Shown here: positions 18,001 through 21,000 of the stretch, one piece after another
How positions within the stretch are numbered: the stretch's first letter is position 1
How the letters are laid out: each line of letters opens with the position of its first letter
IMG/VR virus record: IMGVR_UViG_2531839440_000004
Span: 1-33,438 of that record
Source of the DNA: a virus
Lineage: Duplodnaviria > Heunggongvirae > Uroviricota > Caudoviricetes
Length of the DNA stretch: 33,438 nucleotides
Direction: 5' to 3' (one strand)
Made by a program: the position numbers

Positions 18001-21000
18001 CGGGGACGTGCGGAACAGCGATAAAGCCACACGATATGCAGGCAGCGATTGCCTGTAGCTCGTGCCACGATTTAATCGACGGGCGGGTAAAAACCAGCGA
18101 TTACACCAAAGAAGAATTACGCCTGATGCATGCAGAAGGTGTTTTTCGCACACAAGAAATCTGGAGAAAGGAGGGATATTTATGATTTACCCAACGAATA
18201 CAGGAAAAAGCGGAGAACACCTTCGTCTCACCACGCTGGAAAGTGTCTGGATTCAGGGAAAACTGCGCATGTGGGGGCGCTGGTCGTATATTGGCGGCGG
18301 TAAGACGGGGAATATGTTCAACCAGTTGTTGGCCTCTAAAAAGCTGACGGTGATGCTGCCAACTTACTGATTTAGTGTATGATGGTGTTTTTGAGGTGCT
18401 CCAGTGGCTTCTGTTTCTATCAGCTGTCCCTCCTGTTCAGCTACTGACGGGGTGGTGCGTAACGGCAAAAGCACTGCCGGACATCAGCGCTATCTCTGCT
18501 CTCACTGCCGTAAAACATGGCAACTGCAGTTCACTTACACCGCTTCTCAACCCGGTACGCACCAGAAAATCATTGATATGGCCATGAATGGCGTTGGATG
18601 CCGGGCAACAGCCCGCATTATGGGCGTTGGCCTCAACACGATTTTACGTCACTTAAAAAACTCAGGCCGCAGTCGGTAACCTCGCGCATACAGCCGGGCA
18701 GTGATGTCATCGTCTGCGCGGAAATGGACGAACAGTGGGGCTATGTCGGGGCTAAATCGCGCCAGCGCTGGCTGTTTTACGCGTATGACAGGCTCCGGAA
18801 GACGGTTGTTGCGCACGTATTCGGTGAACGCACTATGGCGACGCTGGGGCGTCTTATGAGCCTGCTGTCACCCTTTGACGTGGTGATATGGATGACGGAT
18901 GGCTGGCCGCTGTATGAATCCCGCCTGAAGGGAAAGCTGCACGTAATCAGCAAGCGATATACGCAGCGAATTGAGCGGCATAACCTGAATCTGAGGCAGC
19001 ACCTGGCACGGCTGGGACGGAAGTCGCTGTCGTTCTCAAAATCGGTGGAGCTGCATGACAAAGTCATCGGGCATTATCTGAACATAAAACACTATCAATA
19101 AGTTGGAGTCATTACCAAAGCTGACAAAAACGGCAATTAACGAGGCGCTCCGGAGGATGAAAAAAGCAGGTCTGAACAAGTCTGAACTTGAGGCTTTTTT
19201 GCGGGATATGATTAACGGTAAGCAAAAGAGCTGGCTGGCGCATTGTACTGATGCAGAGGCGTTATGTATTGATCGGGTGATTAGTGAAGTGCTGGCAGAA
19301 CACCCAGGATTGATTTTTATCCTCCGGCAACGATATGAAGGAAGGGGGATGACTAAGCGAAAAATGGCTGAATTGCTAAATGATGCACACCCTGAGTGGT
19401 GTTTTAGCACATGCGAAAAGCGAATTGCTAATTGGTTGGCTGTTGCTGAGTATGCGCTGTACGTTCCCATGCGAGAATCATTCGCTCAAAAAATAGCTTG
19501 ATTTTTTACGCATAAACTGCTTCAATTCCGGTATGCTTCGCAAAGCTGTATCGCGAGGCGAATAGCAGTTTTGAACATCTAAAGACCCCGTTTAATGCGG
19601 GTTTTTTTATGCCCAAAAACGAAGTAGTGCGTTAAAATGTGATGGTCGGGAGTATACAGACTTTTATATAGCACTGCGTAAAAATCAATTTATCCGGGGT
19701 AAATGTCAATTTGCTTATTAAAAAAACAAAAAGATAAATTTATAGCAATTGTGTTTCTTTGGGTTGAAAGTTTTAATGTCGTCAGTATTATCTGAAGCGG
19801 TTCTGAGGAGGGGGTTTCCATTGCTCGGCCACGATACTTCCGAGGAACCAATTAACGCCGACTTAGCTCAGTAGGTAGAGCAACTGACTTGTAATCAGTA
19901 GGTCACCAGTTCGATTCCGGTAGTCGGCACCATATGCGGGTATCGTATAATGGCTATTACCTCAGCCTTCCAAGCTGATGATGCGGGTTCAATTCCCGCT
20001 ACCCGCTCCAGCAGAGGACGATGCTAGGCTGTTTCAGGCACTGACACATTATATGTGTGGGATGTTTTACCCTAACTCCTTACCACATCCTGTTCTGTAA
20101 TGAATATTATTTATTACGGTACCAGTGTTGTTTTTTTACAATAGTGGAATGGTGCATTACTGGTGGAGATTTGTATTTCCTGGCAGGGCTGGTAATGTAT
20201 CATTCCGGTGTTGTAAATAACACCCCAGAGACGTTCCTCAGTGCGAGGGTGGTTGAAAGAGTCGGTTTTGCGGGAAACCACAGCATCCATGCAGGACTGG
20301 ATGTTTCGGGAGGCACCCGACGTCTCTGGTCATAATAAAATCATAGTGTTCTCTTCATGCCATTTTATGCCATAGACCGCCACGCCAGGCGGTTTTTTTT
20401 ATTCAGAATTCAGTATTTATGCGGCTCGCTACGGCGGGCCTTTTTCATATCCGCGCCACGCCCGGCGCATATCAAAAACCACAGAGCCTTTCAGGGGTGA
20501 GCTTACGGGATGGTCAGTGTGACTTTCTCTGTGGGCTGGTCACCCCCGGGCGCAGGCCCACCCACTAAGAGGAAACGTCACTATGTTTGGTATTTTCAAA
20601 AAGAAAACCCGCAAGGCCATTACTGAAGTGAAGAAAATGGAGAACCGCGACGCGGTGGAGGCGACCGTCTGGGGTGCATATTCCATTGCATACGCTGACG
20701 GCACCTGTGACGCGAAAGAAATCGCGGTACTGGAAAAAAACCATTGCAGCACTTCCTGTCTTTGCGCCGTTCTCCGGTGAGATTGCACAAATGAGTGCAA
20801 ATATCCGCGCCCGTTATGAAGCGTCGCCGCGTTCTGCCAATGCCGAAGCTCTTCGTCAGCTGGCTGATGTTGCCGGTACTGATGATGCAGTTAATGTGCT
20901 GTGCCTGTGTCTGGATATCGCTGACCAGGACGGTATCGGTCAGGAAGAAGAAGCGCAACTGAAGAAAATTGCGCAGGCGCTGCAGTTGCCGCTGGAGCAG

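Follow-up and report, generated by a model that had tools for sequence, protein, structure and literature searches.

The 33,438-nucleotide (nt) stretch of DNA analyzed here, hereafter called the window (IMG/VR virus record IMGVR_UViG_2531839440_000004), carries the genes of transfer RNA (tRNA)-Thr(UGU) and tRNA-Gly(UCC) in a prophage, with a Q-like antiterminator gene on one side and the lysis genes on the other. The results of our analysis indicate that the region is likely to be a transcription unit that is complete in itself and moves among lambdoid prophages, made up of a promoter, a hairpin leader of ~58 nt, tRNA-Thr, tRNA-Gly, an RNA of ~390 nt and a terminator. The tRNA pair itself is an ordinary, routinely annotated prophage feature. 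What the analysis adds is that the unit is conserved as a block, that its promoter appears to be intrinsic, and that a supposed open reading frame (ORF) behind the tRNAs is, to judge from alignment and folding, a structured RNA that never comes without tRNA-Gly and that is probably a remote relative of the STnc100/PasD family of small RNAs (sRNAs).

The stretch between the end of tRNA-Gly and the terminator folds with a minimum free energy of -143.9 kcal/mol (z = -6.8), and RNAalifold applied to its homologues returns a consensus of 75 pairs in 11 helices, 15 of the pairs showing compensatory changes. Standard pairs fill 97.2% of the cells of this consensus structure, a share that drops to 39-53% on sliding the 3' partners along by 1-3 columns, and the covariation score of 0.236 compares with 0.06-0.085 in the slid controls; the observed values were reached by none of 500 shuffles. 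The RNA is built of a long-range helix (GCACUG/CAGUGC), a hairpin of ~32 base pairs (bp), a core of several helices (20226-20329), a linker rich in A and U, and the terminator, and it contains blocks that are single-stranded and invariant. The long hairpin covaries too, for instance at pair 150:216 (AU 14, GC 14). A motif search of viral contigs with the RNA only gave 99 matches, and in all 95 of those with enough upstream sequence a tRNA-Gly(tcc) ends 129-148 nt upstream; the RNA is strictly tied to tRNA-Gly. By blastn the element is present in 425 of 5426 Escherichia coli genomes (~8%), at 556 places (39 of them plasmid-borne), and in only two GenBank phage records; on an IncF plasmid it follows a degenerate tRNA. 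On the evidence of folding, covariation and linkage, the stretch is a conserved structured non-coding RNA and not a protein gene. Weighing against this conclusion are the common descent of the aligned sequences, on account of which the shuffle controls overstate significance and the slid controls are the fairer ones, the origin of alignment A1 from loci found via the tRNA junction, and the dependence of the motif search on 35 conserved bases, independent of the tRNAs as that search is. CGGTTTAGCGGGGAA looks like the type I-E repeat of clustered regularly interspaced short palindromic repeats (CRISPR) when this is reverse-complemented; the likeness, which lies on the wrong strand and has no stem, was judged to be chance.

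The first-pass annotation had considered a 92-residue ORF in this stretch (20057-20335) to be weakly coding, a view that the alignment of homologues overturns. In the window, as in near-identical copies, the frame stays open, as a genuine 92-residue protein would have it. Among the 28 aligned homologues, however, it is kept only by the window and the near-identical locus L004, the others carrying stops within the first 60 codons together with indels that are not multiples of three (25 of 27). Variable columns are spread evenly over the codon positions of the ORF (57/58/59), without third-position bias, and the predicted product has no match in Pfam. Where E. coli genomes match the stretch over its full length, their annotation shows no gene, and a few short partial matches overlap entries called 'hypothetical protein'. 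The ORF was rejected as a gene, and we regard a real protein from it as next to inconceivable. Inspection of the same 28-homologue alignment, by eye only, found no conserved small ORF within the RNA, the frames differing between variants.

It could also be argued that the trailer has no function of its own and is a spacer for processing or termination, its structure being kept only to stabilise or insulate the tRNA transcript. The fixed distance to tRNA-Gly in all loci would agree with such a role, as would the terminator at the end of the trailer and the presence in other tRNA cassettes of an unrelated, hairpin-rich trailer of ~215 nt which is also terminator-ended. We nevertheless find this explanation rather unlikely, in view of the length of ~380-396 nt kept in 42 of the 58 loci having the terminator, of the eleven helices with compensatory changes in several of them, of the invariant single-stranded blocks, and of the apparent relationship with an sRNA family that has been detected as RNA and recovered with Hfq.

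This relationship concerns STnc100 and PasD, prophage sRNAs of unknown function, of which PasD comes from sequencing of ligated interacting RNAs (RIL-seq) with Hfq in enteropathogenic E. coli and STnc100 was found in vesicles of Shiga toxin-producing E. coli (bioRxiv 10.64898/2026.05.13.724894; PMC12370729). Taken as a structured RNA in its own right, the trailer is probably, by way of its 3' core, a distant, 5'-extended relative of the STnc100/PasD lineage, and not a member of it by the Rfam criterion. Aligned with STnc100, the core shows the same closing GGUG/CACC helix, the CCYC...GRGG hairpin, an identical CGGGAGGCACCCG hairpin and a terminator at the end, and a covariance model built from our own core alignment (R1, roughly calibrated) scores 24.2 bits on the STnc100 of phage JLK-2012. 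Besides this apparent likeness of the core, the two kinds of RNA share the prophage niche between Q or cargo genes and lysis genes. The scores also furnish the points against the relationship. The STnc100 model (RF02076) gives a full-length match to the window at 20200-20372 with 18.2 bits, and matches six relatives in the same place with 19-27.9 bits, all below the gathering threshold of 47; model R1 reaches 19.3 bits (E ~0.02) on the STnc100 of phage 933W. Similarity at the level of BLAST is restricted to one block of 13 nt, and the RNA of the window differs from STnc100 in having an extra 5' domain of ~215 nt, with the 32-bp hairpin and the long-range helix, and a fixed distance to tRNA-Gly. 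No Rfam family reaches its gathering level in the RNA. A permissive Rfam scan of the trailer produced, besides the tRNAs and the weak STnc100 match, only spurious microRNA-type matches to the long hairpin, and none to GOLLD, ROOL, AgvB, AsxR or IsrK (GOLLD and ROOL at E values up to 10).

Recognized copies of STnc100 are found in a comparable setting. In 933W (L208) the order is tRNAs, stx2AB, STnc100; in JLK-2012 (L007) a bona fide STnc100 (107 bits) lies downstream of the tRNAs and of tciAB; and in locus L057 an STnc100 that passes the threshold (53 bits) is situated ~265 nt downstream of the tRNA-Gly of a related cassette. In all three loci the tRNA cassette comes first, STnc100 follows with or without cargo (stx2AB or tciAB) in between, and the lysis genes come last. 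In the loci examined here, the tRNAs beside STnc100-type RNAs are phage-borne cassette genes.

As a tentative proposal, for which we would claim rather less than an even balance of probability, the RNA may represent an undescribed, extended form of STnc100/PasD that originates in a tRNA operon, as its 3' trailer, and is freed by tRNA-processing enzymes. The ancestral unit would then have been a tRNA cassette plus sRNA, with toxin or cargo genes (stx2AB in 933W, tciAB in JLK-2012) inserted between its halves. If this is true, the tRNA matches near Pas/STnc100 sRNAs, which a recent preprint has read as integration hot spots, would be genes of phage cassettes and not integration scars. The tRNA-RNA unit would also explain in a simple way at which point toxin operons came in, and the presence of an unannotated structured RNA in such a proportion of complete E. 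coli genomes would offer a testable route of biogenesis for a prophage sRNA family.

We then considered the upstream end of the unit, to which the first-pass annotation had assigned a promoter (TTGAAA-16-TATTAT). Against this assignment stands the consensus scan, in which 2 sites were found as compared with 3.1 in shuffles, so that the match carries no significance by itself. What speaks for the promoter is its conservation: across 23 non-redundant upstream regions, the pairwise identity of which has a median of 47%, the TTG of the -35 and the TAnnAT of the -10 do not vary and stay in register, nor does the 16-nt spacer vary, and equally invariant and in register are the sequences GGTTCYGA, located ~8 nt past the -10, and GARGAACC, located just before the tRNA. 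The latter two motifs pair with each other, forming an outer helix that has 6/6 standard pairs in 20 of the 23 leaders and a sixth pair that covaries (C:G 10, U:A 8, U.G 4). This helix begins at about the predicted start of the transcript and would fit a protective 5'-terminal hairpin. The alternative of a decayed upstream tRNA in the leader (19799-19856) was dropped in favor of the hairpin, there being no call by ARAGORN or by the Rfam tRNA model. Promoter and leader accompany the tRNAs whether these follow a DUF1133 Q gene, a methylase gene, stxB or different types of Q. Since the promoter keeps company with the tRNAs regardless of the upstream neighbor, and since the homology of the Q module ends earlier, conservation indicates that the promoter is intrinsic to the tRNA unit and is not a late promoter belonging to Q.

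The contrary interpretation would identify this promoter with PR', the late promoter, and the terminator at 20374 with tR', and would make of the tRNAs and the RNA a Q-regulated short leader transcript comparable to the 6S RNA of phage lambda or to StxS. It draws on the location between Q and the lysis genes and on the consensus scan, which shows no other plus-strand promoter between the stop codon of Q and the tRNAs. We hold it to be decidedly improbable. The same promoter and leader are found after a methylase gene, stxB and unrelated Q families, whereas a Q-specific PR' with its Q-binding element should co-vary with Q. PR' requires that the region transcribed first contain a -10-like pause element (bioRxiv 10.1101/651190), and none was seen on reading the first 25 transcribed bases of the unit (19799-19825). 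Moreover, Q-module homology, followed in 1764 genomes, passes through a hairpin situated 86 nt past the Q stop codon (19587-19609; -9.2 kcal/mol, z = -2.5) and stops at ~19562-19621, upstream of the promoter; and the annotation of 933W keeps pR'/qut and its terminator apart from pT, the putative tRNA promoter. The hairpin past the Q stop codon occupies a position analogous to that of the terminator annotated after pR'/qut in 933W, the comparison of window positions 19502-19609 with the 933W pR' being positional only; no convincing -35/-10 pair for the PR' of a DUF1133-type Q was found in 19502-19609.

The intrinsic promoter is matched at the other end of the unit by the terminator that had been proposed together with it, the energy of which (table 1) bears out the proposal and the stem of which (CCGCC/GGCGG), with its T8 run, is invariant in the 28 homologues. 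A second terminator follows, and it is homologous, with ~20 nt beyond it, to the 933W terminator between argO and stx2A, a shared mosaic joint.

ARAGORN recognizes exactly two tRNA genes in the window, Thr(tgt) and Gly(tcc), both on the plus strand, with CCA encoded at both 3' ends and a 3-nt spacer, TAT (19933-19935), between them; both are confirmed by the Rfam covariance model, and the initial description of the pair holds in each of these respects, its coordinates included. It also holds in the likeness to the host genes and in the absence of tyrU. The tRNA-Thr is identical to thrU of strain K-12 in 76/76 positions and the tRNA-Gly to glyT in 72/75, the differences being G56A, located in the T loop, and C6U, for which G66A compensates. 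The majority of phage copies do not differ from host thrU and glyT, and the U6:A66 form of tRNA-Gly is a common derived variant. A variant in the D loop of the phage tRNA copies is present in 26 loci.

The K-12 operon has the arrangement thrU, 8 nt, tyrU, 116 nt, glyT, followed by thrT and tufB. The window pair resembles it in having Thr(UGU) before Gly(UCC), in the same order and with near-identical mature tRNAs, and is unlike it in lacking tyrU, thrT, tufB and the synteny with coaA, in its short spacer and in its location in a prophage. The suggestion that the pair was captured from the host operon has gene order, near-identity and the TAT spacer in its favor, and not the flanks. The spacer could correspond to the T after thrU plus the AT before glyT, which is weak evidence in view of its three bases. 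The TAT junction is common to 131 of 137 copies in viral contigs and genomes, and this points to a single origin of the pair. On the other side of the balance, alignment of the leader, spacers and trailer with the K-12 thrU-tyrU-glyT-thrT region yields only chance matches of 8-14 nt, and because flank homology to the host operon is gone, capture is unprovable from the flanks. The simplest history that we infer, plausible but unproven, is capture from an enterobacterial thrU-tyrU-glyT operon, most likely by a single event that removed tyrU. Related cassettes contain, in the Thr position, genes with a thrU-like body and a switched anticodon, UUU (called Lys) in at least seven loci and UCU (annotated as tRNA-Arg) in one; examples are found in SerU-LTIIb (L002, 1122-1194) and in several IMG/VR loci. 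These genes may be natural anticodon-shift derivatives.

Regarding the use that a phage could make of such tRNAs, ACA constitutes 35% (early genes) and 20% (late genes) of the Thr codons of the prophage of strain F9792, which is collinear with the window, as against 11% in 42 genes of K-12 (50 kb); GGA constitutes 30% and 20% of the Gly codons, as against 9%. The corresponding odds ratios versus K-12 are 1.95-4.26 for ACA and 2.64-4.63 for GGA. The enrichment of ACA and GGA anticipated by the first-pass annotation is real and fits codon supplementation by the tRNA pair, yet it is not specific. AGA and ATA, for which the prophage has no tRNA, are enriched equally, reflecting a general bias toward codons ending in A or T, and the enrichment of ACA and GGA is stronger in early than in late genes, all of which counts against supplementation.

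Could the tRNAs serve instead mainly as a reserve against host defences or toxins that target tRNAs? The variant positions in the acceptor stem and T loop of the Gly copy, and the anticodon-switched derivatives of related cassettes, would suit this idea. However, the Thr copy and most phage Gly copies are identical to those of the host and would be cleaved like host tRNAs; the Gly variant positions amount to a compensated pair and a purine-to-purine change; and no nuclease specific for tRNA-Thr(UGU) or tRNA-Gly(UCC) was identified in this analysis. We consider a reserve function improbable.

Combining these elements, we infer the following working of the unit, including the start of the transcript, its processing, the binding of Hfq and a function for the RNA. 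In the lysogen, the promoter would drive constitutive transcription that stops at the terminator or terminators, leaving the downstream lysis genes silent. RNase P and 3'-processing nucleases would free both tRNAs, which would add to the decoding of ACA/ACG and GGA/GGG, codons over-used two- to four-fold by the prophage. The trailer would be freed as a stable RNA with the terminator hairpin and a U tail, and its 3' core, as probably a distant relative of an Hfq-associated prophage sRNA family, might bind Hfq. Upon induction, polymerase modified by Q and coming from the upstream late promoter would read through the whole unit. In the window this read-through route is broken because an IS1 copy splits the Q-like gene, so that only autonomous expression can remain. 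The transcript start, the processing sites and the efficiency of termination are predictions, and this must be set against the scheme. That the unit is intact although the Q-like and TerB genes are broken suggests that it can be expressed, and may be useful, in the lysogen.

The sequence surrounding the unit, the features of which are collected in table 1, is a decayed lambda-like, Rac-type lambdoid prophage and not chromosomal backbone. The gene order is intR, recET, kilR, repressor region, hok/sok, DUF1367, YbcO and the DUF1133 Q-like gene, then the tRNAs, beyond which lie a frameshifted gene of the TerB family, DUF3927, two holins and an M15 endolysin. The near-identical, collinear prophage of strain F9792 (L001) adjoins ttcA.

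Table 1. Position and basis of the features of the tRNA unit and its neighborhood in the window (energies from folding; features of the unit are predictions where so indicated).
Feature	Position	Strand	Basis
Q-like (DUF1133) antiterminator gene, 5' fragment	18182..18349	+	Collinear with F9792 coding sequence, L001 19360-19902
IS1 splitting the Q-like gene (approximate boundaries)	18350..19121	+	InsA and InsB ORFs; homology between window and L001 interrupted from 18349 to 19122
Q-like gene, 3' fragment	19122..19501	+	Homology to L001 resumes at 19122
Hairpin and T run, candidate tR' or Q-module terminator (putative)	19587..19609	+	Terminator scan
Sigma-70 promoter of the tRNA unit, TTGAAA-16-TATTAT (predicted)	19764..19791	+	10/12 consensus positions; conservation
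5' leader, ~58 nt	19799..19856	+	Helix 19799-19804 with 19844-19849; -19.2 kcal/mol
tRNA-Thr(UGU)	19857..19932	+	ARAGORN; Rfam tRNA model 73.8 bits (gathering 29)
tRNA-Gly(UCC)	19936..20010	+	ARAGORN; Rfam tRNA model 65.5 bits (gathering 29)
Conserved structured non-coding RNA ending in intrinsic terminator	20011..20403	+	Folding, covariation, linkage
Long hairpin, ~32 bp, helix 4 of the consensus	20130..20224	+	-43.7 kcal/mol, z = -7.6
STnc100-like core domain	20226..20329	+	Sub-threshold Rfam match, apparently shared helices
Intrinsic terminator of the unit	20374..20403	+	Hairpin 20374-20395 and T run; -12.6 kcal/mol, z = -4.4
Second terminator	20423..20449	+	Terminator scan, folding; homologous to 933W terminator upstream of stx2
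TerB/TciA-family gene, frameshifted	20583..21009	+	Downstream neighbor of the tRNA unit
Lysis genes: two holins and M15 endolysin	21246..22283	+	Pfam; F9792 collinearity

The DUF1133 protein occupies the Q position of the prophage. In its intact form it matches DUF1133 of Pfam with an E value of 8e-108 and Phage_antitermQ with 27.7 bits (cut-off 26), and its match to the Q21 structure (6p18) is marginal (E 0.24). With the gene split by IS1, Q-dependent late transcription should be lost and the late genes not switched on. The window holds four copies of IS1, at 7783-8527(-), 12349-13093(-), 14586-15345(+) and ~18350-19121(+). The TerB/TciA-family gene is frameshifted also in F9792, in which Q is intact, and the tRNA/RNA unit next to it is intact. 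An ORF of 232 residues at 15326-16024(-), with IS1 at its 3' side, may be truncated; F9792 has two hypothetical genes to part of which it corresponds. Three other RNAs are present at Rfam gathering level, namely the RalA antitoxin RNA (1557-1735), sok with a hok-type ORF (16412-16736) and DicF (7275-7326, minus strand), which are typical of Rac/Qin-type prophages. Directly downstream of DicF, model R1 has a weak match (7136-7253, minus strand; 17.6 bits, E ~0.05) that may be due to chance.

The pair is widespread. A junction probe of 44 nt found 456 places in 389 of the 5426 complete E. coli genomes (~7%), with annotated tRNA-Thr and tRNA-Gly, and at least 120 IMG/VR contigs contain the Thr-TAT-Gly junction. 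The species representatives that have it belong to Escherichia, Shigella, Citrobacter and Enterobacter, and among GenBank phages it is seen in SerU-LTIIb, vB_EcoS-683R6, PhiR47_1 and JLK-2012, the last having a tRNA-Asn before the pair. About half of the cassettes are longer, with Met/Ile(CAU), then Lys(UUU) or Arg(UCU), preceding Thr and Gly. The first-pass annotation had likened the location to the cargo position in which Shiga toxin phages carry tRNA genes and had taken the identities of the tRNAs to be distinct; the location does correspond, but the identities do not set the window apart, this very pair being present downstream of stxAB in phi467, a phage that carries stx. A tRNA-Thr(UGU) downstream of Q is known in SfI, Sf6, ST64T and phage 21, with a bias for ACA in SfI (PMC3636060). 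In the literature we found nothing directly relevant to this Thr/Gly pair or to the promoters of ileZ, argN and argO.

Among known systems, the closest parallel is the cassette of 933W, the record of which (GenBank AF125520) lists pR', qut, terminators, a 'pT putative tRNA promoter', ileZ-argN-argO, a terminator and stx2AB. Both cassettes place tRNAs between Q and lysis or cargo genes, behind a Q-proximal terminator, with a putative promoter and a terminator of their own. Like the tRNAs of SfI, Sf6, ST64T and phage 21 (PMC3636060), those of 933W and of the window decode host-rare codons. As far as the tRNA pair is concerned, the window is one more well-documented prophage with tRNAs for over-used codons, organised like the 933W cassette. 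The differences lie in the identity of the tRNAs (Thr-UGU/Gly-UCC, host-identical in sequence rather than phage-type), in another sequence family of promoter and leader, with a 58-nt hairpin leader in place of an almost leaderless start, and in the structured RNA, which directly follows the tRNAs in the window and is separated from them by stx2AB in 933W if its counterpart there is STnc100. The four-tRNA cassettes carry the same pT sequence as 933W. The GOLLD and ROOL RNAs are likewise structured and tend to adjoin tRNA genes in prophages (PMC5737381); the RNA of the window is much smaller and simpler, has its hosts in Enterobacteriaceae and is not matched by either model. With the PR'-tR' transcript of lambda, the 6S RNA, and with StxS, the unit would share a short transcript, made constitutively from the stretch that separates Q from the late genes and ending in a terminator that Q can override; it differs from both in a promoter that is not tied to Q, in showing no visible sigma-dependent pause element and in carrying tRNAs. 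The distribution of its parts suggests that promoter, leader, tRNAs, RNA and terminator move between prophages as one block.

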